Shown here: in pieces, positions 22,460-31,130 of the stretch
Numbering within the stretch: the stretch's first letter is position 1
Layout: each line of letters begins with the position of its first letter
DNA from: a virus
Virus record (IMG/VR): IMGVR_UViG_3300034136_000001
Coordinates: 1-40,178 of that record
DNA: 40,178 nt
Strand: one strand, 5' to 3'
Made by a program: the position numbers and the translations under genes
The notes under the pieces: generated by a model
Seen by the model: only the letters and a program-made list of their open reading frames with translations
What the model was told of the DNA's origin: nothing
The model's database searches: none

Positions 22460-22548
22460 TGGATTTACTCACATTTTTGGAGGCTGCGGCCGATGTCTGC
22501 ATCATAGTATTTGTTCTCGTTTGGTTGTTTGCTCGACGTAACGTGTAA
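22459..22548 (+). CDS. 29-aa single-TM peptide, a lysis-accessory candidate
   Basis: Its ATG overlaps the endolysin TAA (TAATG). The sequence is MDLLTFLEAAADVCIIVFVLVWLFARRNV. It is below the ORF-track size cutoff. Confidence 0.35.
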   Translation: MDLLTFLEAAADVCIIVFVLVWLFARRNV

Positions 22549-22567
22549 CGTGCTACAATATAAGCGT

Positions 22568-22600
22568 AAGGAGGACTGCCTGTGGTCCTCCTTTGTTTGT
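22568..22600 (+). terminator. Intrinsic terminator-like hairpin after the lysis cassette
   Basis: A 9-bp stem AAGGAGGAC/GTCCTCCTT (22568-22576 and 22585-22593), an 8-nt loop, then the T-rich run tgtttgt. Confidence 0.55.
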
Positions 22601-22601
22601 A

Positions 22602-22610
22602 TGATATAAT
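22602..22610 (+). promoter_or_regulatory. Extended -10 promoter element TG-a-TATAAT
   Basis: Read directly. It is followed by RBS AAAGGA and the ATG at 22642. Confidence 0.45.
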
Positions 22611-22641
22611 CTAGTCACAACTTAACGAAAGGAATAGCACC

Positions 22642-22830
22642 ATGCATATCCAGAGCAATATATTAACTTTTTATGAGGATATGGGCGGTAATCCCGTACA
22701 ATTCCCTGATGGGACCTATAAAATTAGAATCGAATATGACCCGACACCGTTTGGCAATCAGTGGAAAATCCGCTGTTATGACAAAAAGGGCAATCGACTT
22801 GATAGCTTGAAGTTTGCAACTGAGGAATAG
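22642..22830 (+). CDS. Hypothetical 62-aa protein in a moron-like standalone transcription unit
   Basis: It has its own -10 element, its own RBS and a strong terminator 40 nt downstream. Confidence 0.5.
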   Translation: MHIQSNILTFYEDMGGNPVQFPDGTYKIRIEYDPTPFGNQWKIRCYDKKGNRLDSLKFATEE

Positions 22831-22871
22831 TGATATAATAAAAACGCACTTTGAGATGCCGATCAAGCACC

Positions 22872-22901
22872 AAAAAAGCACCCACGACAGGTGCTTTTTT
22901 T
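22872..22901. terminator. Bidirectional intrinsic terminator
   Basis: AAAAAA-GCACC-cacgaca-GGTGC-TTTTTTT. It sits where plus-strand late transcription and the minus-strand RNA operon converge. Confidence 0.8.
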
Positions 22902-22977
22902 GGTTGCGGGTCGCGGATTTCAACCGACGTTACTCCAACTTATGAGATTGGCGAGATTAGCATACCTCCCACCCGCA
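22901..22977 (-). tRNA. tRNA-Met(CAT)-like gene with a non-canonical T arm
   Basis: The minus strand gives 77 nt with acceptor TGCGGGT/ACCCGCA (7 bp), D stem GAGG/TCTC, anticodon stem CCAAT/GTTGG and loop CTCATAA (anticodon CAT). The 3' ACCA is encoded. However, the T loop is TTGAAAT (G at position 56), the T stem has only 3 clean pairs, and the D loop TATGCTAA lacks GG. Confidence 0.55.
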
Positions 22978-22982
22978 TAGAC

Positions 22983-23027
22983 GGCCCTGGCAGGGTTTCC
23001 CCTGCACTCGGCGTCCCTCAGAGGGCC
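22983..23027 (-). ncRNA. Structured spacer between the two tRNA-like genes, containing a GNRA-capped hairpin
   Basis: On the minus strand an outer helix GGCCCT/AGGGCC encloses GCAGGG-GAAA-CCCTGC, a 6-bp stem with a GAAA tetraloop. Confidence 0.4.
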
Positions 23028-23033
23028 ATATAG

Positions 23034-23149
23034 TACCAGTGGCGGGACTCGAACCCGCGTGAGCCTTGCAAAGCTCCCTGCCCGGCGACTAGTACACCGG
23101 GGCTGACGGCCCCCCTAGCAAGGGCGCTCGGCCACTGAGCTACACTGGC
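23034..23149 (-). tRNA. tRNA-like gene with canonical acceptor, D and T arms but 48 nt in place of the anticodon loop
   Basis: Read on the minus strand: acceptor GCCAGTG/CACTGGT, D arm GCTC-AGTGGCC-GAGC, T arm GCGGG-TTCGAGT-CCCGC, and variable region CTCAC. CCTTGC and GCAAGG, at the anticodon-stem position, are separated by 48 nt, which contains the hairpin CCCGGTG-UACUAGU-CGCCGGG. No CCA is encoded. Confidence 0.5.
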
Positions 23150-23160
23150 ATAGACGACTA

Positions 23161-23330
23161 TGGCAATGTTGGCGGCGCTATGAAGCTTACATTTCTTTCC
23201 TTTGGTACTTTCCGCCGGAACATTGAACGTCATTCTGCCTTTGGTAGTACCGGACTTGCACCGCTATCCTCCACAGGGGGTCTTTTGGTAATCCACAACC
23301 CCCAACGCTGGGCGACGTTACCGCCAACAC
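23161..23330 (-). ncRNA. Unclassified structured RNA candidate of about 170 nt, the first element of the RNA operon
   Basis: It starts 5 nt after a minus-strand TATAAT. A 10-bp closing helix forms between GUGUUGGCGG (23330-23321) and CCGCCAACAU (23175-23166), including a G-U pair that is possible only on the minus strand. It ends in UUGCCA. Internal hairpins include GGGGG...CCCCC and a T-arm-like CGG-UGCAAGU-CCG. No convincing ORF is present. Confidence 0.4.
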
Positions 23331-23334
23331 TGGT

Positions 23335-23340
23335 ATTATA
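23335..23340 (-). promoter_or_regulatory. TATAAT -10 element on the minus strand, heading the RNA operon
   Basis: The reverse complement of 23335-23340 is TATAAT. The upstream -35 region is weak (ACTAAT or TACTAA). Confidence 0.4.
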
Positions 23341-23439
23341 TCTAATCTTTTCTTTCGATTAGTAGAGTTACCCCGATAACTATAATTAGACATATAATCA
23401 TAGCGCCCGTCGAGGAAGCGGTGTTGGTAACTTCTTCCA

Positions 23440-24219
23440 TTAGTAGAGCCTCTTTTGGTACTTGCTCTGGAAGTTATACACCTCCTCGATTGAGCGCAGG
23501 CAGCCGCGTAACGACGCCTGTGGGCGCAGTAAATCGCGGGCGCTTTCATGCTCCAGTTTAGCCATGAATATATGGTAATCGAAGTCAGGGTTACTAGAGA
23601 ACAATTGCTTAAATGCGTTTGCCATCGGCGAGTTCATCTTGACGTGCGTTCGAGTGATTATAGAATCAAGCTGTTGCAGCCATTTGCGTGATTTTTCCAG
23701 ATCATCTATCTCAAAGTCGCCACGCCGGAAATCCAGCTCGATATTGCCGCCACGCTTGCCGACCAGGTAGAGCCGCAAAATGCTTGGGGCGATACGGTGG
23801 AACTCACTGTGCAACCGGACGAATGTTTTGTAGTCCTCTCGGCCGCTATCGGCATAGCTGCGGGCGAAGTCCATGAGTGTCCAGCGTTTCTGGGTCGTGT
23901 TAAGGCTCCTGGTGTCGTCCAGAGCAATTCCGGGCGTCAATATGTAATAGAGCGGTACGCCAAGCTCCTGTGCGGCCATATGACGGTGCTGGCCGTCGAT
24001 AATGTAGTAGTGTTCATTAACCGATATCGGATTAGTTGCCAGCAAATGCGGGTTGGCTTTCATTTCAGCCTTAAGCCGTTTGACATGGTTATAGTCAATA
24101 GGGCGGTTGCCGCCCATCAGCTTGAACATGGCATATATAGTAGTAACTTCGATTTTTGGCGGTACGATACCGCTAGTGGTTGTTGTTTTGGTGGTGATTG
24201 GGGCCTGTGTTCCCATCAT
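23440..24219 (-). CDS. ParB-like nuclease-domain protein
   Basis: A 259-aa ORF with RBS AGGAAG. It contains the ParB/Srx-type N-terminal domain motif YYIIDGQHRHMAAQELG, preceded by GGNRPIDYNHVKRL. Confidence 0.7.
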   Translation of the reverse strand: MMGTQAPITTKTTTTSGIVPPKIEVTTIYAMFKLMGGNRPIDYNHVKRLKAEMKANPHLLATNPISVNEHYYIIDGQHRHMAAQELGVPLYYILTPGIALDDTRSLNTTQKRWTLMDFARSYADSGREDYKTFVRLHSEFHRIAPSILRLYLVGKRGGNIELDFRRGDFEIDDLEKSRKWLQQLDSIITRTHVKMNSPMANAFKQLFSSNPDFDYHIFMAKLEHESARDLLRPQASLRGCLRSIEEVYNFQSKYQKRLY

Positions 24220-24221
24220 AA

Positions 24222-24782
24222 TTATTCTTCCTGCTTATCTTTAATATTATCTTTGTCAGCCGGCGGAGTGTCCGTCGCTGGCGCGGTTACTTTCTTCTTA
24301 AACTGCGACCGCCCCCACTCTTTATCGCGGTTAGCAGCCAATGTGAAGAACGTATAGGTCGAGCCGTCGTTTTGCACGTCGTCCTCGATGGTGTATTGTG
24401 CTAGTAATCCCTCTTTCATCAGAGAGCGCACAGCAATCATAGTATCGTGGGTAGCATAGCCCATAGTCCAGTTGGAGAGGTAATTTTCTTCCAAATCCTG
24501 TTCTTTTTTGGCTAGTTTCTGAAATGAGTACACCAACATATCCTTGAGGTTTTCGATACGTTCGCCAAACTCCCATTTTTGGGGAGCTGATAACGCCCGC
24601 ACCGCACCCTCGTCTTTGTCCGGCTCGCTAATCCAGCCTAATTCTGTGGCGTACCAGATAGCCGTGTTGATCTCGACACCGGGCATTTCCATCAGATTGA
24701 TGATTTCGGTTAGGTTTCGCTCCGGGTACTCCTGGATTAGATAGGCGACCTTATTTGCATTTTCGAGCATTATGTTTCTCAT
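24222..24782 (-). CDS. Hypothetical early protein
   Basis: I chose the ATG at 24782, which lies 6 nt after AGGAGG and overlaps the upstream TAA (TAATG), instead of the TTG at 24788 used in the ORF track. Confidence 0.55.
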   Translation of the reverse strand: MRNIMLENANKVAYLIQEYPERNLTEIINLMEMPGVEINTAIWYATELGWISEPDKDEGAVRALSAPQKWEFGERIENLKDMLVYSFQKLAKKEQDLEENYLSNWTMGYATHDTMIAVRSLMKEGLLAQYTIEDDVQNDGSTYTFFTLAANRDKEWGRSQFKKKVTAPATDTPPADKDNIKDKQEE

Positions 24783-25525
24783 TACCAACCTCCTGTTAAA
24801 TTACTGTCGCTGCGGTCACTACGGACGCCTAATTCGACGCCCTCCGGTATCTCGCCTTTAATATCGTGAAGATTTGTCAAGGCAAAGCCCTCTGTTACAA
24901 GGCCCTCTAAGAGCGCCAGCTCCAAATACTCGAAAAACTCTGGGTCGGGCATTACCCGGACAATCACAAACTTTTTCGTATTGAAGTTCAGCGCGACGTA
25001 ATCACACCACGGTAATTTACTGGCAAATAGCTGTCCCTGTACTTGTTTCCAGTGTTTGTCGGGGATGCCTGAGATCAATACCTCTGTAAAGCTATTATCC
25101 TTAAGGATTTTAACTTCGAGCAGCCCCATAATCTTGCCGGCATTTCTGTCGTTACGAATAACCCTGTCAGGGCTGGCTACGAATACATCGCTGTACCAGC
25201 AACCTACCTCCGCAGGATACCAGCCCTCCGGTAATGTTTCAGCATATTGCTTGGCCGCGTAATCTTCGTAATCAATACCGTCCTGCATGGCGCTGTTGGT
25301 GTAATACTCAAAAGAGGTATTAAACTGGCGTTCAAACATAAGTTCTTTCTCATAGTCGAGCCGGGGCTTGAGTGGTTTTCCCGCGCTGGTTTTAGCTTTG
25401 GATGTGGCCAGCCAGTCCGACAAGCGGGAAGCGGTGATTTTCCCGCGCCGAATAGCGAACCACTCCGGCGACTTTTGGGGTGCGCCGGAATACTCAAATG
25501 TCATGGGTGGAGCAGCATTAAGCAT
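24782..25525 (-). CDS. YqaJ-type (lambda Exo-like) recombination exonuclease
   Basis: It contains the motif SPEWFAIRRGKITASRLSDWLA. I moved the start to the ATG at 25525, which has AAGGAG 7 nt upstream and an ATGCTTAA overlap with the upstream stop. The longer N-terminus in the ORF track overlaps the upstream gene and is Arg/Ser/Pro-rich. Confidence 0.7.
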   Translation of the reverse strand: MLNAAPPMTFEYSGAPQKSPEWFAIRRGKITASRLSDWLATSKAKTSAGKPLKPRLDYEKELMFERQFNTSFEYYTNSAMQDGIDYEDYAAKQYAETLPEGWYPAEVGCWYSDVFVASPDRVIRNDRNAGKIMGLLEVKILKDNSFTEVLISGIPDKHWKQVQGQLFASKLPWCDYVALNFNTKKFVIVRVMPDPEFFEYLELALLEGLVTEGFALTNLHDIKGEIPEGVELGVRSDRSDSNLTGGW

Positions 25526-25850
25526 TGTCAGGCTCCTTGGCCGGCGGGGTAATGTCATAGCCTTTTTTCCGTAAGTCCTCGACAGCCTGCGCCTCGCGCT
25601 GGGCGATGAGCTGGTCTGCCTCCTCTTTGGTAATGGCCATTTCCTTGAGGTCAATGTCCGGGAACGCAAAACCCTGCCGCCAATCAGTGATGACGATATC
25701 GGTTTCCATAAGCGGTTCGCGGAACGCCTCCGGCTTTACTTCCAGATTGATTTTGACCGGGTACTCGCCTTTGTTTAGGCGGCTAGGCATACTCTTGGTC
25801 ATCGCCTTGACGCCGTATCTATCGACCCGGAGCCAGATAGTTTCATTCAT
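25518..25850 (-). CDS. Hypothetical early protein
   Basis: A 110-aa ORF with TAATG coupling to the upstream gene. Confidence 0.5.
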   Translation of the reverse strand: MNETIWLRVDRYGVKAMTKSMPSRLNKGEYPVKINLEVKPEAFREPLMETDIVITDWRQGFAFPDIDLKEMAITKEEADQLIAQREAQAVEDLRKKGYDITPPAKEPDNA

Positions 25851-26233
25851 TATTTGACCTCCGTTACGACCACATTAGAATTGCACGACCACGGCAGCTG
25901 GACGGCAACATACTTGCCAGATGTCACAACCACTTTGATACGCTTATCCTCGGCTGCCCGGTTGACCAATGCGATGTACTTGGAGCCTTTTGGCAGACAG
26001 TAATTGCTGGCATTTTCCTCGGTAACGACGGTGTTCTCCGACGCCCGGACGCTGAATGTGGTTTTGCCACTAATCAGCCGGTCATTCTGGGTGTTGTAGA
26101 CTATGCCGGATACGCGCTCATTCGATGTCTTGAACCGCACGAACAGTACCGCAAAGAAGAATGCCCCGATGAGGAGCAGTATGACTACTGCTCCAAAAAC
26201 TTCGAGTGACCCGTTTTGGTTATGGCGTCGCAT
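25850..26233 (-). CDS. Membrane-anchored hypothetical protein
   Basis: A 127-aa ORF with an N-terminal TM helix (VFGAVVILLLIGAFFFAVLFV). Confidence 0.5.
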   Translation of the reverse strand: MRRHNQNGSLEVFGAVVILLLIGAFFFAVLFVRFKTSNERVSGIVYNTQNDRLISGKTTFSVRASENTVVTEENASNYCLPKGSKYIALVNRAAEDKRIKVVVTSGKYVAVQLPWSCNSNVVVTEVK

Positions 26234-26235
26234 GA

Positions 26236-26817
26236 TTAGAACTTCGCCGGTACGGTGTTAGTTGGCTTGCTGTCATCGGCAGGCTTGTCGCCACCGGGGA
26301 AAATCTTGTCGATGTTCTCACGGCTGATTTCTTCGCCACCGACCTGTTTTGGCATGAGTTCCGGCTTGAGCTTTGGCTCGTAGCCGTAGACGTTGCGGTT
26401 GACGCTCTGGCGCTCATTACCGTCATTGTCAACCCAAGTGCGGGTAGGGTCGAGATACTTGGTAAACCACAGTTCTCCACCGGCCACTTTGGCATTCAGC
26501 AATTCGGCTAATGCAGCGGTGTCGGTACATGCCTCGACTGCCTGGCGCATTTCCTCTTTTGCAGCGTCGTCCTTGCCGTTGTGGACAGCGATTTGCCGCA
26601 GTGTGTTGAATGAATAAGGGGCAGCTTTGCCAGTAAACCAGACGCGGGCAGTATCTTCGATACCATCGGCATTCGTGATTTCCAGGTCAATCCAGTCCCG
26701 GCCGTCATCGGTTTCGCCGTCGGTAGCACCGACCAGTTGGACCTTGCTAATACCATAGGGCAGTTTTTCTGTGAACTCGCGCTCTGCCTTGTCGTCGTCG
26801 TTGAATTGATATGCCAT
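26236..26817 (-). CDS. Hypothetical protein, possibly an ssDNA-binding accessory protein of the Sak4-like ATPase (DUF669-like by context)
   Basis: A 193-aa ORF with an acidic N-terminus, lying downstream of the AAA_24/Sak4-like gene. The call rests on gene context and recollection only. Confidence 0.3.
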   Translation of the reverse strand: MAYQFNDDDKAEREFTEKLPYGISKVQLVGATDGETDDGRDWIDLEITNADGIEDTARVWFTGKAAPYSFNTLRQIAVHNGKDDAAKEEMRQAVEACTDTAALAELLNAKVAGGELWFTKYLDPTRTWVDNDGNERQSVNRNVYGYEPKLKPELMPKQVGGEEISRENIDKIFPGGDKPADDSKPTNTVPAKF

Positions 26818-26821
26818 AAAA

Positions 26822-26959
26822 TTACTCCTCTATCTCAATAATATTTTTAGTATAAGGTTCGACATCGTATTCTGCGTCATGCTGGCGAGCTACGAGTTCC
26901 TCGCCGTAACGGTGGAGCATGATTGTTCCATTCCCGTTGACTATTACCGTCAGGGTCAT
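26822..26959 (-). CDS. 45-aa hypothetical protein
   Basis: It has an ATGA overlap with the stop of the upstream ATPase gene. It fills the gap 26818-26955 and ends 4 nt before the next ATG. It is below the ORF-track cutoff. Confidence 0.4.
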   Translation of the reverse strand: MTLTVIVNGNGTIMLHRYGEELVARQHDAEYDVEPYTKNIIEIEE

Positions 26960-27639
26960 TTCTTGGTAGTCCCGACCTTGACTTTGCGCTGTGGTAGCTC
27001 CCAGCCGGCAGCTCGCAGGAACCCCTCGATTTTCGATAGGTCTGGTTCCCCGGCCATAACTGTTCGCTTACTGACAACCTGGGCGCGGTATTTCTCCCCG
27101 TCATAGCTGGTCAGTATAATCCCATCAGCAAAACGTGTGAACTGGCGAATGGATTTCAACTCACTAGCCAGCACAATGCTCCCCGAAATGTCATCGACCT
27201 GACGTTTCGTATAGGTAAGCACAAGCACGTTTTTCGGAATGGATTGGAGTGTTTCGGCAATAGCGGCCATGCGCTTATTGAATTGCCCGGTCAATTTGCC
27301 GTAGGGTACATCGGTTAGCGCATTTATGGCGACGCCGGTTTCGGTCTGGTAGCTGTCGATGACTGTCTTTTCTACCAGGTCAGCGATACCCTCAATGGTG
27401 TCGATAACCAGCGTGTCGTATTCTTCGGCGGTCGCAAAGTAATACACTGCCTCGCGTACCGTGTCCAGGCTGTCGGCGTCAACGGCGTCCAGTCCAGCTT
27501 TGGCGGCGTTGCCGTCGGTACTGATGAACAGCGGCTTTGGAGCCTTTGCCGCCAACGTCGTCTTGCCGGTCATCGGGTCGCCCATGATGATGAACTTCGA
27601 TGGCGCGGACGGAGTAGCTTTCTTAATGTTGAGTGGCAT
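26956..27639 (-). CDS. Sak4-like / AAA_24 family ATPase, a RecA-related recombination protein
   Basis: A 227-aa ORF with Walker A IIMGDPMTGKTTLA near the N-terminus and Walker B-like YDTLVIDT. The size and layout are typical of phage Sak4 proteins. Confidence 0.65.
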   Translation of the reverse strand: MPLNIKKATPSAPSKFIIMGDPMTGKTTLAAKAPKPLFISTDGNAAKAGLDAVDADSLDTVREAVYYFATAEEYDTLVIDTIEGIADLVEKTVIDSYQTETGVAINALTDVPYGKLTGQFNKRMAAIAETLQSIPKNVLVLTYTKRQVDDISGSIVLASELKSIRQFTRFADGIILTSYDGEKYRAQVVSKRTVMAGEPDLSKIEGFLRAAGWELPQRKVKVGTTKK

Positions 27640-27851
27640 TACTTTCCTCCTCCTAGAGCCTTAATTGATGGGTCTACAGTCGGCGCACCCTTGAGCGGGT
27701 GGTTCAACATGTACTCTTTCATAGCCTTGCGTATCAGGTCGCCCATAGTGGTGTCGTCCAGTTGAGCAAGGTAGTTGTTGACTTCGCCGCCAAAAACGGG
27801 GTCAACTCGCGCACCGATATATCGGTCTTTGACTAATGGTGTCTTTGCCAT
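27639..27851 (-). CDS. Small protein, possibly a ribbon-helix-helix DNA-binding protein
   Basis: A 70-aa ORF with a beta-strand-like IGARVD followed by helices (VNNYLAQL ... MGDLIRKAMKEYM). Confidence 0.35.
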   Translation of the reverse strand: MAKTPLVKDRYIGARVDPVFGGEVNNYLAQLDDTTMGDLIRKAMKEYMLNHPLKGAPTVDPSIKALGGGK

Positions 27852-27854
27852 AAT

Positions 27855-28043
27855 TTATTCCTCGTACTCCAGCGGATTTAGGTAGCGGTCAACGCTCTCT
27901 GCAAATGCCGGAGGTATATTATCTTCCATATTATTCATGTCCTGTTTCATGTGATACCAGCGTATCACGTTGATAGACGTTTTGCAAGTATTTGGTTCGC
28001 CTCCACCCATCACGCGGCCTCCAAAATCTTCTCGGTGTACCAC
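27855..28043 (-). CDS. Hypothetical early protein
   Basis: A 62-aa ORF in the compact operon. It overlaps the SNF2 gene end by 34 nt. Confidence 0.4.
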   Translation of the reverse strand: MVHREDFGGRVMGGGEPNTCKTSINVIRWYHMKQDMNNMEDNIPPAFAESVDRYLNPLEYEE

Positions 28044-29338
28044 TGTTTTTCCTGGAAGTCCGACTTGTTGCGGAGTGCAGCCCAGACATCATTTTCGATG
28101 GTGGCCGGGGCGCACAACAGGTACAGCGTCATTTTCTTCGTCTGACCGTTACGGTTTGTCCGTCCAATGCTTTGTTCGTAATTGCTGTACGAATAAGTTG
28201 GCGAGAAGTAAACGGTAGTCGCAGCATAAGTAAGCTCGATGCCGGTGGAACCACTCTGGTATTGAGCAAGCGTGATAGTGCGTTCAAGTCCCAGCCATTC
28301 ACTCTTTGGGGGTACTTCGTGTTTTTCTCCATCTTGGCGGAATACCTTTCGACCCTTATGGTTTTTCTTAATCATATCCAGGATTTGCTCGCGCTCCCGC
28401 TGGTAGTTGTAGAAGATGACCACATTGTCCGATACACCCTCCAGGAACGTGTCCAGCCATGCCAGCTTGGGCGCGATAATGGATTTCCGCAGCGCGTGTA
28501 GCAAAGCACTAGGGTTATCCAAGAACTTCTCCTCGAAAAAGCGCGATTTCTGCACCTTAATGTAGTCCGGCCCGGGTGGCAGGCGCACGGGAACCACCGT
28601 AATTGGCGGCAAGTCGAGCGCTTTCTGCTTGGATAGAGGTTTGGCGATGGCATTCCATTTGCGCTGCAAATCCTCCTCCATGAAGTAGCCACGGATTTCC
28701 GGGAACCCCCGGTAATTGACCTCATTGACGTACTTTTTCTTGAACTCGGTTTTGTTCTTCACATAACCGAAAATCTTAAAGTAGTTCATGGCGTCAATCC
28801 AGCCGTTCGGCAGTGGTGTGGCGGACAGTCCGATAAAGCAGTTGGCGACGGCGGCAGTTTCATGTATCGCCTTACCAGCCAGTGATTGCGGGTTCTTAGC
28901 CTTGTGTACTTCGTCGGCGATAAGCGCAAAGTGGCCGTGGTTTTTCAGCCAGTCGGCCATGACGCCACGGCTGCCAGTTTCCCGGTACTGCTTGGTGCTG
29001 GCCTTGCGACTATATTTCTCATAGCTGTATACGGCGTATTCAGGCGGTATACGGCCGGCAAAGTATTCTTTGATGTCACGTTCCCAGTCGCCGGTATTGA
29101 CCTTTGAGGCGGGCGCTACGACCAACAGGGGCGCTGGATAGCTGTGCTTATCGTAATGAGCCAGTGACATGAATGTCTTGCCCGTGCCGGTGTCGGCAGC
29201 CATGATGTATTTGGCTGGTATACCCTGTAAATACGTTTTCTGAAAATCATAGAGCGATACGGCCGGCTTGCCGTCCATCGTATTATATTTTAGGCGTTCG
29301 CGGTGATCTTCTTTCCAGCTATTGCGTGTGGCTTTCAT
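28010..29338 (-). CDS. SNF2/DEAD-like superfamily 2 helicase
   Basis: A 442-aa ORF with motif I AADTGTGKT, motif II LIADEVHKAKN, and later LSATPLPNG and QSIGRTNRNGQ. Confidence 0.8.
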   Translation of the reverse strand: MKATRNSWKEDHRERLKYNTMDGKPAVSLYDFQKTYLQGIPAKYIMAADTGTGKTFMSLAHYDKHSYPAPLLVVAPASKVNTGDWERDIKEYFAGRIPPEYAVYSYEKYSRKASTKQYRETGSRGVMADWLKNHGHFALIADEVHKAKNPQSLAGKAIHETAAVANCFIGLSATPLPNGWIDAMNYFKIFGYVKNKTEFKKKYVNEVNYRGFPEIRGYFMEEDLQRKWNAIAKPLSKQKALDLPPITVVPVRLPPGPDYIKVQKSRFFEEKFLDNPSALLHALRKSIIAPKLAWLDTFLEGVSDNVVIFYNYQREREQILDMIKKNHKGRKVFRQDGEKHEVPPKSEWLGLERTITLAQYQSGSTGIELTYAATTVYFSPTYSYSNYEQSIGRTNRNGQTKKMTLYLLCAPATIENDVWAALRNKSDFQEKQWYTEKILEAA

Positions 29339-29784
29339 AATAAATTACTCGCTTTCAATACATTTTTATAGAGTCGTGGCCGCAGTTCGCGGTTAGGCAC
29401 GATGCCGCCGCGCCGACTGCTCATTACGAATCGCCTGCAAGCCTCCAGATCAAGCTCATGGCCTTTGTACCCTGCTGATACCGCGATTGGCCTATCTTCT
29501 AATTCTATACGCCACGTCAGGTCATACGCAAAGAGGCCGTCAGTCAGCCAGGCGTGGACATATGCCTCGTCCATAAATATACCGACACCCTCGCAGTAAC
29601 GATATTTGCCATTACTCGCTATAGCCGCTAGGAGACAGGTAGCAAAACACTCACCTGGTTGGCCATATTCCAGATCATCGGGCAACCGACCAGCCGGAAG
29701 ATATACTTTGCCTTTCCCCGCCCACTCACGGATATAATCGTCGAGTTCGGCCGGTTCACTCGGATTGCTTTTACTAACGCGCAT
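29335..29784 (-). CDS. Hypothetical protein with a possible papain-like Cys/His/Asp arrangement
   Basis: A 149-aa ORF with QPGECFATC ... YVHAWL ... FAYD. The spacing fits a Cys-His-Asp triad, but the family was not identified. Confidence 0.3.
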   Translation of the reverse strand: MRVSKSNPSEPAELDDYIREWAGKGKVYLPAGRLPDDLEYGQPGECFATCLLAAIASNGKYRYCEGVGIFMDEAYVHAWLTDGLFAYDLTWRIELEDRPIAVSAGYKGHELDLEACRRFVMSSRRGGIVPNRELRPRLYKNVLKASNLL

Positions 29785-30032
29785 TACCAGTCCTGCTCCT
29801 CGACGCGCTCGTCGATAACTAGATTGCCATGTGCTATATGCGCCAAAACATAAATCTTCGGTTCGTCGCCGAATAGGGTATCCAACTTCTTTAGTTCGTC
29901 AATCGGTACGGGTATCAGGACTGTCCGGTCACGCGCCTCAGTGTAGGCCATGATTTCGGGTAGTCCGCTCATGCCAGCGCCAAAGAGCGGTCGTTGCAAT
30001 TTCCAAACTTCTAATGTTTTCTTCTTGAACAT
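29784..30032 (-). CDS. Hypothetical early protein
   Basis: An 82-aa ORF with RBS AAGGAA. Its stop overlaps the next start. Confidence 0.5.
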   Translation of the reverse strand: MFKKKTLEVWKLQRPLFGAGMSGLPEIMAYTEARDRTVLIPVPIDELKKLDTLFGDEPKIYVLAHIAHGNLVIDERVEEQDW

Positions 30033-30056
30033 GCCTGTGTTCCTTAGTTAAATTTG

Positions 30057-30269
30057 TTATTTCTGGTGTCCGTCGCACCAATTGTTCAACGCTTCCTGCC
30101 GCTTGCCGCACCAACATTTCTCGATATGCCAATAGCTGCTTTCTTTCCCCGTCATGCGGGTCGGCTCGTCGGTACAGATGAAATAGTGATCGTGCTGCCA
30201 TAGAAACTTAATATATTCCCATTTACTTCGCAACCACCTAACGGCGGCGTTGAGATATTTTTCGCCCAT
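30057..30269 (-). CDS. Hypothetical Cys/His/Trp-rich small protein
   Basis: A 70-aa ORF with RBS GAAAGG 5 nt upstream. Confidence 0.5.
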   Translation of the reverse strand: MGEKYLNAAVRWLRSKWEYIKFLWQHDHYFICTDEPTRMTGKESSYWHIEKCWCGKRQEALNNWCDGHQK

Positions 30270-30390
30270 GTTTGCCTTTCGTTACGAGGATTATTTTGCC
30301 AGTAGCAAGCCCGATGTGTCGGATAATGATTTTGATGACATGTGGCTTTCTAGGGTCACTGTCCAGATATTCGTAGTCGTTACCACTCAT
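30238..30390 (-). CDS. Possible leaderless 50-aa ORF
   Basis: Its ATG at 30390 lies 8 nt after the minus-strand TG-c-TACAAT, the same geometry seen at other promoters here. It overlaps the next gene by 32 nt. The coding status is doubtful. Confidence 0.25.
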   Translation of the reverse strand: MSGNDYEYLDSDPRKPHVIKIIIRHIGLATGKIILVTKGKHGRKISQRRR

Positions 30391-30398
30391 GCTTTAGC

Positions 30399-30408
30399 AT
30401 TGTAGCAC
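30399..30408 (-). promoter_or_regulatory. Extended -10 element GTGCTACAAT on the minus strand
   Basis: The reverse complement of 30399-30408 is the same 10-mer found at 9018-9027, 20935-20944 and 22550-22559. Confidence 0.5.
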
Positions 30409-30412
30409 ATTG

Positions 30413-30868
30413 TTAGTCGTTGGTCGCGTCAGCCTCCAGATCATCTAGGTGAGCGCGTAGCACATCCCAATTAATTCCCTGCTCGGCGTCATGTTTGTCA
30501 TCAGCTATTTTCAGCACCTTACGGGCGGTTTCATCTGACAAGGTACTCTCGCCGTCTTTTTCACAGTTATAGTCACTCAAAGTGTCCATATTGTGCGTAG
30601 TACAGTGATACCAGGTAAGCCCGTCATCCTCACCGTCCGCGCTAATTTGCTCTACGCTACATTCACCCCGCAGGCTTTTAACATCCTCAATAGTCCAGAG
30701 GCTTGCGATGGTGTCGCCGCGCAACATACTATCAATTAATGCTAGTGCCTGATTGGTTGAGTGTGCCTCTGGGCTGTTCTCCGGCAACGTACCCTTACGG
30801 ATAAACAGGCTGCCTCGGATTGCTTTTAAAATATGTTCGCTGAACATGATATTATTCCTCGCTTTCAT
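30413..30868 (-). CDS. Hypothetical early protein
   Basis: A 151-aa ORF with an acidic C-terminal half. Confidence 0.5.
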   Translation of the reverse strand: MKARNNIMFSEHILKAIRGSLFIRKGTLPENSPEAHSTNQALALIDSMLRGDTIASLWTIEDVKSLRGECSVEQISADGEDDGLTWYHCTTHNMDTLSDYNCEKDGESTLSDETARKVLKIADDKHDAEQGINWDVLRAHLDDLEADATND

Positions 30869-31130
30869 TAAATAATCGTTTTACAATATGTGCCTGTGTC
30901 TCGGCATTTAAATCCTCAAAGTGGATACGCTTGCCGAGGTGTTTGCCCTCTAAGCCATAACCCCATTGGCTGTAGGTATGCCCGCCGTCGTTATCGACGC
31001 ACAGCATATCGACTAGCGGCCGAGGGTCGCCATTGGCGGCCATTTGCTCCTGAACCGGCCGATAATCAGTAACGATGCTGTAGCGGTCAACAGTCCGGCC
31101 GCCATTATCGTAAATTGCAGTTATCCTCAT
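30852..31130 (-). CDS. Hypothetical early protein
   Basis: A 92-aa ORF overlapping its neighbours in the operon. Confidence 0.5.
   Translation of the reverse strand: MRITAIYDNGGRTVDRYSIVTDYRPVQEQMAANGDPRPLVDMLCVDNDGGHTYSQWGYGLEGKHLGKRIHFEDLNAETQAHIVKRLFNESEE

Follow-up and report, generated by a model that had tools for sequence, protein, structure and literature searches.

We studied tRL1 (tRNA-like gene 1), a 116-nt tRNA-like gene on the minus strand of a 40,178-nt stretch of viral DNA (IMG/VR record IMGVR_UViG_3300034136_000001), which was analysed whole and is called here the window. The body of tRL1 is that of a canonical class-I tRNA, and its abnormality is confined to the anticodon loop, in place of which stand 48 nt. 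The explanation that we prefer, with about even confidence, is that tRL1 is a rearranged class-I tRNA gene that would give an unspliced, non-decoding, tRNA-shaped RNA, the rearrangement being recent and of little or no benefit to the phage. We lean towards viewing this RNA as a tolerated or weakly useful by-product of a recently acquired cassette of two tRNA genes, tRL1 and its neighbour tRL2. Should tRL1 RNA be produced and retained, phages would possess tRNA-shaped RNAs unable to translate, which would bear on the 50-year-old question posed by RNAs of the T4 RNA C/D type and on how phages handle host defences directed at tRNA.

A canonical tRNA body around a replaced loop

Read from 23149 to 23034, the minus strand runs GCCAGUG-UA-GCUC-AGUGGCC-GAGC-G-C-CCUUGC-[48 nt]-GCAAGG-CUCAC-GCGGG-UUCGAGU-CCCGC-CACUGGU-A (Table 1; element position n is window coordinate 23150 - n). 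Pairing is complete in the acceptor stem (7/7), the D stem (4/4) and the T stem (5/5), and the T loop, UUCGAGU, fits UUCRANY. Two nucleotides (G, C) separate the D stem from the helix at the anticodon-stem position, where one is canonical, and this helix has 6 bp and encloses 48 nt, as against a 5-bp stem and a 7-nt loop with U33. A preliminary description of the gene had listed the acceptor stem, the D and T arms, the CUCAC variable region and the CCUUGC/GCAAGG helix around the 48 nt. All of these are present at 23034-23149, and its view of a tRNA-shaped gene with an intact elbow, unable to decode as written, stands. It was also right that no CCA is encoded.

Rfam recognizes tRL1 as a tRNA. 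Family RF00005 matches 23034-23149 exactly (40.3 bits, gathering score 29, E = 4.4e-07, model 1-71), a match seen only with lax filters; the default-filter run misses tRL1. Acceptor stem and both the D and T arms are aligned, and the anticodon arm appears as a deletion. Likewise, when a 5-nt filler stands in place of the 48 nt, ARAGORN at its default threshold calls an ordinary 74-nt tRNA. It is on this match and this call that we base the class-I assignment of the body.

Given the native sequence, ARAGORN returns two answers. By default it calls a 93-nt "tRNA-Pyl(CUA)" that begins inside the element, with 5/7 acceptor pairs, a 3-bp GGG/CCC D stem and A33; in intron mode the call is "tRNA-Pro(AGG)", whose anticodon stem is mismatched and whose intron has 26 nt. 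The two calls are mutually exclusive and both are forced fits, leaving no credible class assignment. The preliminary description had proposed asking standard tools for a known class: ARAGORN does assign one, but as two incompatible, mismatched calls that we do not count as real, and Rfam matches the tRNA family but gives no known intron-containing class. No transfer-messenger RNA (tmRNA) was detected at tRL1 by the ARAGORN tmRNA mode or by Rfam, no match to the Y RNA family RF02553 was found in the tRL1 region, and no Intron_gpI, other intron or ribozyme family was found by Rfam across 22800-23400 at E <= 10. Matches to tmRNA, Y RNA, ribozymes and ctRNA were at noise level only, and these candidates were rejected. 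A YrlA-type or bacterial Y RNA is also contradicted by the ends of tRL1, which sit in the acceptor stem in an ordinary, not permuted, tRNA topology. A coding reading and an integration site (attP) were set aside as well: the 71-aa open reading frame (ORF) overlapping tRL1 has no homologue, and no integrase is present among the window ORFs scanned.

The middle of tRL1, the 67 nt between the D and T stems, was compared with 20,000 dinucleotide-preserving shuffles. At least six Watson-Crick pairs in the anticodon-stem register arose in 69/20,000 shuffles (p about 0.0035), showing that the helix at the anticodon position is, or at least once was, real. This places the insert precisely at the former loop site. 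An uninterrupted hairpin of at least 7 bp arose in 47% of shuffles, so the 7-bp hairpin capped by CUA is not beyond chance. The insert had a fold-energy z-score of +0.20 and the whole middle one of -0.19, and the insert is no more structured than shuffled sequence of 69% GC. With the tRNA core enforced in a nearest-neighbour model, three local hairpins (n25-41, n47-70 and n74-89) reach -54.1 kcal/mol versus -50.0 kcal/mol for the nested fold, a 4 kcal/mol gap that is within multiloop-parameter error; the anticodon-position helix has an ensemble probability of about 0.4%.

Both hairpins noted in the preliminary description, CCCGGUG/CGCCGGG with the loop UACUAGU and the competing GGGGC/GCCCC, are present. 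Its picture of the insert as a structured module that displays an amber anticodon did not hold up. The helices are at the level of chance for 69% GC, the CUA aligns to a motif of the D arm (next section), and, taken as an anticodon loop, the hairpin loop has A33 where U33 is near-universal.

Possible origin of the insert, and the neighbouring gene tRL2

Part of the insert resembles the beginning of the gene itself. Positions n49-70 (CCGGUGUA-CU-AGUCGCCGGGC) align to n2-24 (CCAGUGUAGCUCAGUGGCCGAGC), that is, to the acceptor 5' strand, UA and the D arm, with 19/23 columns matching. The alignment score was reached by 29/5000 shuffles for this segment, which was picked post hoc, and by 156/5000 for the whole insert. 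In this alignment, the CUA lies opposite the universal UAGCUCAG motif, two bases of which have been lost. Because the hairpin that it caps aligns to the gene's own acceptor-5'/D-arm segment, CUA looks like a remnant of UAGCUCAG. The internal repeat fits a duplication or recombination at the DNA level.

From their sequences, tRL1 and tRL2 look like tandem units, prone to such rearrangement. Their leaders form a 28-nt direct repeat (D1) of 75% identity, with a score reached by 15/5000 shuffles. The similarity between GGGCCGUC of the insert and the tRL2 leader is not significant (755/5000 shuffles), and a three-copy tandem model of the 5' third of tRL1 was rejected, its middle copy being without similarity. 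The acceptor stem of tRL2 has 7 bp (U1-A72), its anticodon arm, CCAAU-CUCAUAA-GUUGG, is canonical with the anticodon CAU, and CCA is encoded. Only three pairs of its T stem are good, GG is absent from its D loop and its T loop reads UUGAAAU, and because of these defects the usual elbow contacts are missing. tRL2 is absent from the Rfam tRNA matches at E <= 10, and a search for its anticodon-arm pattern returned chance matches in coding sequence only. The defects of tRL2 mirror those of tRL1.

tRL1 is a single case in the collections searched. A blastn search of 22500-23700 against 50,697 INPHARED phage records gave no match, and the insert pattern had no match in IMG/VR. Exact and degenerate patterns of the 5' half, the insert hairpin and the D and T arms found no tRL1 homologue in IMG/VR, and D/T-arm pattern scans of JGI metagenome contigs and GTDB genomes found no homologous element; the only JGI metagenome pattern match (L045) is an ordinary tRNA beside a fragment. 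The 3' 21-mer of tRL1 (T arm and acceptor strand) is identical to that of bacterial tRNA-Leu(UAA) genes, including Verrucomicrobiota genes with G1.U72, A73 and no CCA. In IMG/VR this 21-mer occurs in L051/L052 only, aberrant tRNA-like genes of ~108 nt, and the 5' pattern found their relatives L072-L074.

The ParB-like gene upstream of tRL1 has 66 relatives, at 40-69% identity. Contigs of eight of these were examined, 13 loci in all (relative loci L038-L044 and L046-L050), and at none of these loci does a tRNA-like gene follow the ParB-like gene. The phages whose ParB-like gene is most similar have no such cassette. An RNA-like element that lies between the ParB-like gene and tRL1 is kept in several relatives without the tRNA-like cassette. 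Because the relatives examined have no tRNA-like gene at this position, the ~270-nt tRL1-tRL2 cassette appears specific to this lineage, and is most simply explained as a recent gain.

We propose that a DNA rearrangement swapped the 7-nt anticodon loop for a 48-nt GC-rich segment, part of which would be a degenerate second copy of the gene's own 5' third. tRL1 would be transcribed as part of the minus-strand early operon, close to its end. The elbow and the acceptor/T minihelix are the features recognized by RNase P, by 3'-end trimming enzymes and by the CCA-adding enzyme. Because minihelix and D/T elbow are intact in tRL1, its transcript should mature like any tRNA precursor, with a 5' cut by RNase P, 3' trimming and CCA addition. 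The insert would stay in, with no splicing, and the product would be a stable tRNA-shaped RNA of about 116-119 nt that does not decode. Together, the single-case status of tRL1, its unstructured insert and its degenerate partner tRL2 favour a recent rearrangement that brings little or no benefit. If tRL1 is merely a scrambled gene, it would be a small example of how tandem phage tRNA units rearrange.

Several points weigh against this proposal. All 22/22 canonical base pairs and the elbow nucleotides are intact in tRL1. Phage genomes usually shed useless DNA, although intact helices would also be expected if the rearrangement was recent. The internal-repeat signal is modest for a segment chosen after the fact (p between 0.006 and 0.03). 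The local hairpins contain four G.U pairs that form on the minus strand alone, a weak hint at constraint on the RNA. Furthermore, oversized tRNA-like genes whose acceptor stem is perfect are met repeatedly in other phages, in some cases with clear conservation, suggesting by analogy that such an architecture can be functional.

Oversized tRNA-like genes and competing explanations

We searched IMG/VR for a GCUCAGUGG..GAGC D arm and a GGUUCGAGUCC T loop set 55-85 nt apart, a D/T motif that at least 120 ordinary tRNAs also carry. The pattern was found at 37 loci, among which about 20 distinct ones combine a perfect 7-bp acceptor stem with a 52-78-nt middle. These are heterogeneous, and a helix in the anticodon-stem register occurs among them only in L005/L020, in L022 and in the window.

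L005/L020 are the phages Aeh1 and PX29, and their element is present in 13 Aeromonas phage records; Ah1, avDM12-TAAL, phiAS5 and phiWae14 carry it unannotated. Like tRL1, this element of T4-like Aeromonas phages is phage-encoded, with 117-122 nt, a perfect acceptor stem, a D arm and a T arm. It matches the Rfam tRNA family (46-54 bits in PX29, avDM12, phiAS5 and phiWae14) with a large insertion in the anticodon region, and its weak anticodon-position helix encloses about 55 nt. The T stem carries compensatory changes, as does an inner hairpin (GAAUCU/AGAUUC to GAUUCU/AGAAUC), and the nominal anticodon drifts (CAC, CAA, AAA) while the helices covary. The middle domains of the Aeromonas element and tRL1 cannot be aligned and have no sequence similarity. 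In addition, the Aeromonas element encodes CCA whereas tRL1 does not, and it is conserved across three genera with compensatory changes, whereas tRL1 is a single case.

Compensatory changes are found in two further families. L009 and L017, of a jumbo-phage family, differ at three fully compensatory acceptor pairs, and the L051 family has one compensatory T-stem pair. L051/L052 have the acceptor stem, discriminator and T arm in common with tRL1 (GCCAGUG ... GCGGGUUCGAGUCCCGC CACUGGU A), and L072-L074 (about 108 nt) differ from these parts at one to three positions; these common ends are the search pattern itself, and homology is unproven. As in tRL1, the middle is non-canonical and the hairpin loop, AGUAAGA in these genes, carries a purine as nucleotide 33. 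Unlike that of tRL1, it consists of two hairpins and is class-II-like, resembling tRNA-Leu(UAA) with a very long variable arm; the D arm also differs, and nothing aligns to the 48-nt insert. ARAGORN calls none of L051/L052 and L072-L074.

By analogy, tRL1 may belong to a widespread, uncharacterised class of phage non-decoding, tRNA-shaped mimics in which the acceptor/T/D elbow is kept and a 50-80-nt domain takes the place of the anticodon arm, an assignment that we regard as doubtful. The proteins addressed by such mimics would be those of host or phage that recognize the shape of a tRNA. Such a class would be conserved in T4-like Aeromonas phages, the L009/L017 jumbo-phage family and the L051 family, and its members would be mislabelled in databases as intron-bearing or odd tRNAs. 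In this respect tRL1 points to a recurrent and mis-annotated class of phage tRNA-like genes with an oversized anticodon domain.

The compensatory changes of the Aeromonas element, L009/L017 and the L051 family also speak for a selected mimic or decoy, that is, an unspliced, non-decoding RNA kept since proteins that read the elbow and acceptor would bind it. We consider this unlikely for tRL1, though it is the alternative that fares best; the preliminary description had raised it, together with a structural RNA that makes use of tRNA processing enzymes. Candidate partners would be a synthetase, enzymes that process or modify tRNA, or the nucleases or transferases of tRNA-targeting defences. In tRL1 the elbow is intact, as are the acceptor stem and the D and T arms, the gene is placed at the end of the early operon, and phage genomes are economical; moreover, phage tRNAs are known to counter tRNA-cleaving defences (PMC10264068, PMC11464382, PMC11555353). 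These counter-defence tRNAs, however, are functional decoders, and tRL1, a single case without homologue and with no excess structure in its insert, gives no sign of selection. Anticodon nucleases mostly read the anticodon loop, and this usual target is absent from tRL1. Outcompeting the very large cellular tRNA pool would probably be inefficient as well. We found no described class of short phage tRNA introns or of tRNA-like decoys in the literature.

T4 RNA C (species 1, rnaC) and RNA D resemble tRL1 in being non-decoding small RNAs beside phage tRNA genes, and their roles are still unknown (PMC3014915, PMC9697503). By eye, RNA C has at its end, as tRL1 does, a canonical T arm (CCGGG-UUCGAAU-CCCGG) adjoining a helix that resembles an acceptor stem. 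In contrast to tRL1, in which only the loop is missing from the cloverleaf, RNA C lacks a D arm, shows two U.U mismatches in the acceptor and gives no RF00005 match at E <= 0.1, and the two share no sequence homology.

It is improbable that tRL1 serves as a processing handle, whose fold would be a signal for RNase P and RNase Z that sets the 3' end of the RNA-like element and frees tRL2. Parallels are the 3' end of MALAT1 with mascRNA and the tRNA-miRNA units of the herpesvirus MHV68, in which a non-aminoacylated, tRNA-shaped module recruits RNase P and RNase Z and directs the cutting of a longer transcript; unlike tRL1, these are eukaryotic. tRNA processing in MHV68 infection is the subject of PMC11092647. 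tRL1 begins 18 nt past the conserved RNA-like element, and the leaders of tRL1 and tRL2 are similar. In relatives, a terminator hairpin follows the RNA-like element directly, so that here something else would have to define the 3' end. Against this, an ordinary tRNA would suffice, leaving the 48-nt insert unexplained, and the relatives manage without tRL1.

Marginally less probable still is a functional tRNA interrupted by a short intron of a new, protein-dependent type, which would be excised and the halves ligated, an idea of the preliminary description for which no positive evidence emerged. The insert does lie exactly between the strands of a significant anticodon stem, GenBank presents the comparable PX29 element as a two-piece tRNA-Leu, and the intron mode of ARAGORN finds its tRNA-Pro(AGG), but that model requires a mismatched stem. 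As had been described, a conventional loop, which would have U33, R37 and a normal wobble base, is not regained by any excision; the sole candidate is CUAGGGG, with anticodon AGG and A34. Inspection gave no bulge-helix-bulge, since CUAG/AGCU (5-bp stem) and UAGG/GAGC (6-bp stem) are non-complementary. Rfam offers no intron or ribozyme, the 5' end of the gene is copied in part of the insert, the ORFs scanned include no domain of an RNA ligase or endonuclease, and the predicted anticodon of the Aeromonas family varies. The earlier exclusion of a group I intron is confirmed. Like tRNA-Leu(UAA) with a group I intron, tRL1 has an insertion within the anticodon loop of a bacterial-type tRNA, and it has the same acceptor stem and the same T arm as tRNA-Leu(UAA) genes of Verrucomicrobiota and Bacilli. 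Group I ribozymes, however, have roughly 200 nt or more, against 48 nt without a Rfam group I match in tRL1, and the D arm and 5-nt variable region of tRL1 are class I and not Leu-like.

A different arrangement is seen in L022/L027 (IMG/VR 3300030454_000081 and 3300030086_000091), a tRNA-like gene with GCGCG-UUUCAUU...UUUUCAU-CGCGC. Dropping about 40 nt between near-identical direct repeats would restore a canonical UUUUCAU loop (anticodon UUC), and among phage tRNAs L022/L027 is a better candidate than tRL1 for a genuine intron or other short insertion.

Least probable of all is an amber suppressor, a class-II RNA derived from tRNA-Leu in which the CUA-capped hairpin would be the anticodon arm and GAGCUU-UGCA-AGGCUC the long variable arm, as in the default ARAGORN call; LeuRS does not read the anticodon, acceptor stem, T arm and A73 are identical to those of bacterial tRNA-Leu(UAA) genes, and TAG ends 10/51 ORFs, mostly late genes. 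Position 33 is A instead of U, however, and the called register pairs the acceptor poorly although a perfect acceptor stem lies upstream, using which would require an extra hairpin between D arm and anticodon arm; the hairpin is at chance level and its loop aligns to UAGCUCAG, and the standard code serves the genome well, without any call for in-frame TAG.

For annotation, such genes are missed under the default Rfam filters or are named arbitrarily, as Pyl-CUA in the case of tRL1 and, among Aeromonas phages, as Val or as an intron-bearing Leu. A tRNA of this shape that is reported from a phage as a "suppressor tRNA" or an "intron-containing tRNA" therefore calls for caution.

The locus and its neighbours

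Table 1. Features of the tRL1 locus (window coordinates) and oversized tRNA-like genes of Aeromonas phages
Feature	Position	Strand	Details
tRL1	23034..23149	-	116 nt; Rfam RF00005 match
tRL1 5' leader	23150..23170	-	resembles the tRL2 leader (UGCCAnnGnCGUCUAUGC)
tRL1 acceptor stem, 5' strand GCCAGUG	23143..23149	-	7/7 pairs with 23035-23041 CACUGGU, including G1.U72
tRL1 D arm GCUC-AGUGGCC-GAGC	23126..23140	-	G18 G19 present; C at the usual A21 site
tRL1 CCUUGC, 5' strand of anticodon-stem-position helix	23118..23123	-	six Watson-Crick pairs with 23064-23069
tRL1 insert replacing the anticodon loop	23070..23117	-	48 nt, GC-rich (69% GC)
Degenerate direct repeat of tRL1 n2-24, within the insert	23080..23101	-	local alignment; holds the CUA-capped hairpin (n49-69)
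31-mer across the tRL1 insert (example)			GGTGTACTAGTCGCCGGGCAGGGAGCTTTGC
tRL1 GCAAGG, 3' strand of anticodon-stem-position helix	23064..23069	-	pairs with CCUUGC
tRL1 variable region CUCAC	23059..23063	-	C48 can pair with G15
tRL1 T arm GCGGG-UUCGAGU-CCCGC	23042..23058	-	sequence and Rfam alignment
tRL1 acceptor 3' strand CACUGGU and discriminator A	23034..23041	-	sequence; CUAUAU next, no encoded CCA
Spacer between tRL1 and tRL2	22978..23032	-	imperfect hairpin GGCCCU...AGGGCC (I1) and second leader copy (D1)
tRL2	22901..22977	-	77 nt; ARAGORN at lowered threshold only
Bidirectional intrinsic terminator	22869..22904	.	ends the minus-strand early operon just past tRL2; inverted repeats I2, I4 flanked by A/T runs
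Oversized tRNA-like gene, Aeromonas phage Aeh1	L075, 96384-96505		Aeh1t001, annotated tRNA-Val(CAC), 122 nt
Oversized tRNA-like gene, PX29	L076, 83777-83893		CL89_gt001, annotated tRNA-Leu in two joined pieces
Further copies, Aeromonas T4-like phages	L078-L081

The window belongs to a novel tailed phage with genes for a terminase, an M23/amidase endolysin, a ParB-like protein, a YqaJ-type exonuclease, an AAA_24 protein, a helicase and a primase; many of its proteins are without a family match. tRL1 lies within a non-coding stretch of ~1 kb at the 3' end of the minus-strand early operon, in the order ParB-like gene (stop at 23440), RNA-like element (23168-23328), tRL1, hairpin spacer, tRL2 and terminator. 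The stop codons of the genome are TAA (31), TAG (10) and TGA (10) in 51 ORFs. Nine of the ten TAG stops are in plus-strand late/structural genes, and the minus-strand early operon (23440-31130) uses TAA and TGA only.

The RNA-like element (minus strand) is also found in L038, L042-L044, L046, L047 and L048, where it follows the ParB-like gene. Its closing helix is GUUGGCGG/CCGCCAAC, its inner helix shows compensatory changes (AACGUC/GACGUU, AACGC/GCGUU, AACCUC/GGGGUU), and it carries a conserved AAUGUAAGCUUCAYAGC box. The element has no Rfam match, and is possibly a new structured RNA or a protein-binding inverted repeat. The motif TACCAAARG has five copies in the genome, four of them on the minus strand at 23199-23207, 23238-23246, 23282-23290 and 23452-23460, a cluster spanning 262 nt just upstream of tRL1. 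The expectation is 0.55 copies per genome, and 0/100 shuffles reached five. Three of the copies fall in window-specific expansions of the RNA-like element.

In L038, L039, L042 and L046, the early-operon terminator hairpin after the ParB-like gene keeps the loop UGCGAG while its stem sequences vary. The terminator of the window differs from this type, and a similar one occurs in the relative L047. Between the bidirectional terminator and an upstream terminator of its own lies a 62-aa ORF on the plus strand (22642-22830), an arrangement typical of 'moron' genes. No tRNA-like gene is found near its homologues, which have 63-70% identity and occur in other phage-like contigs and on one contig of a Saccharibacteria metagenome-assembled genome, the latter a weak hint at the host.

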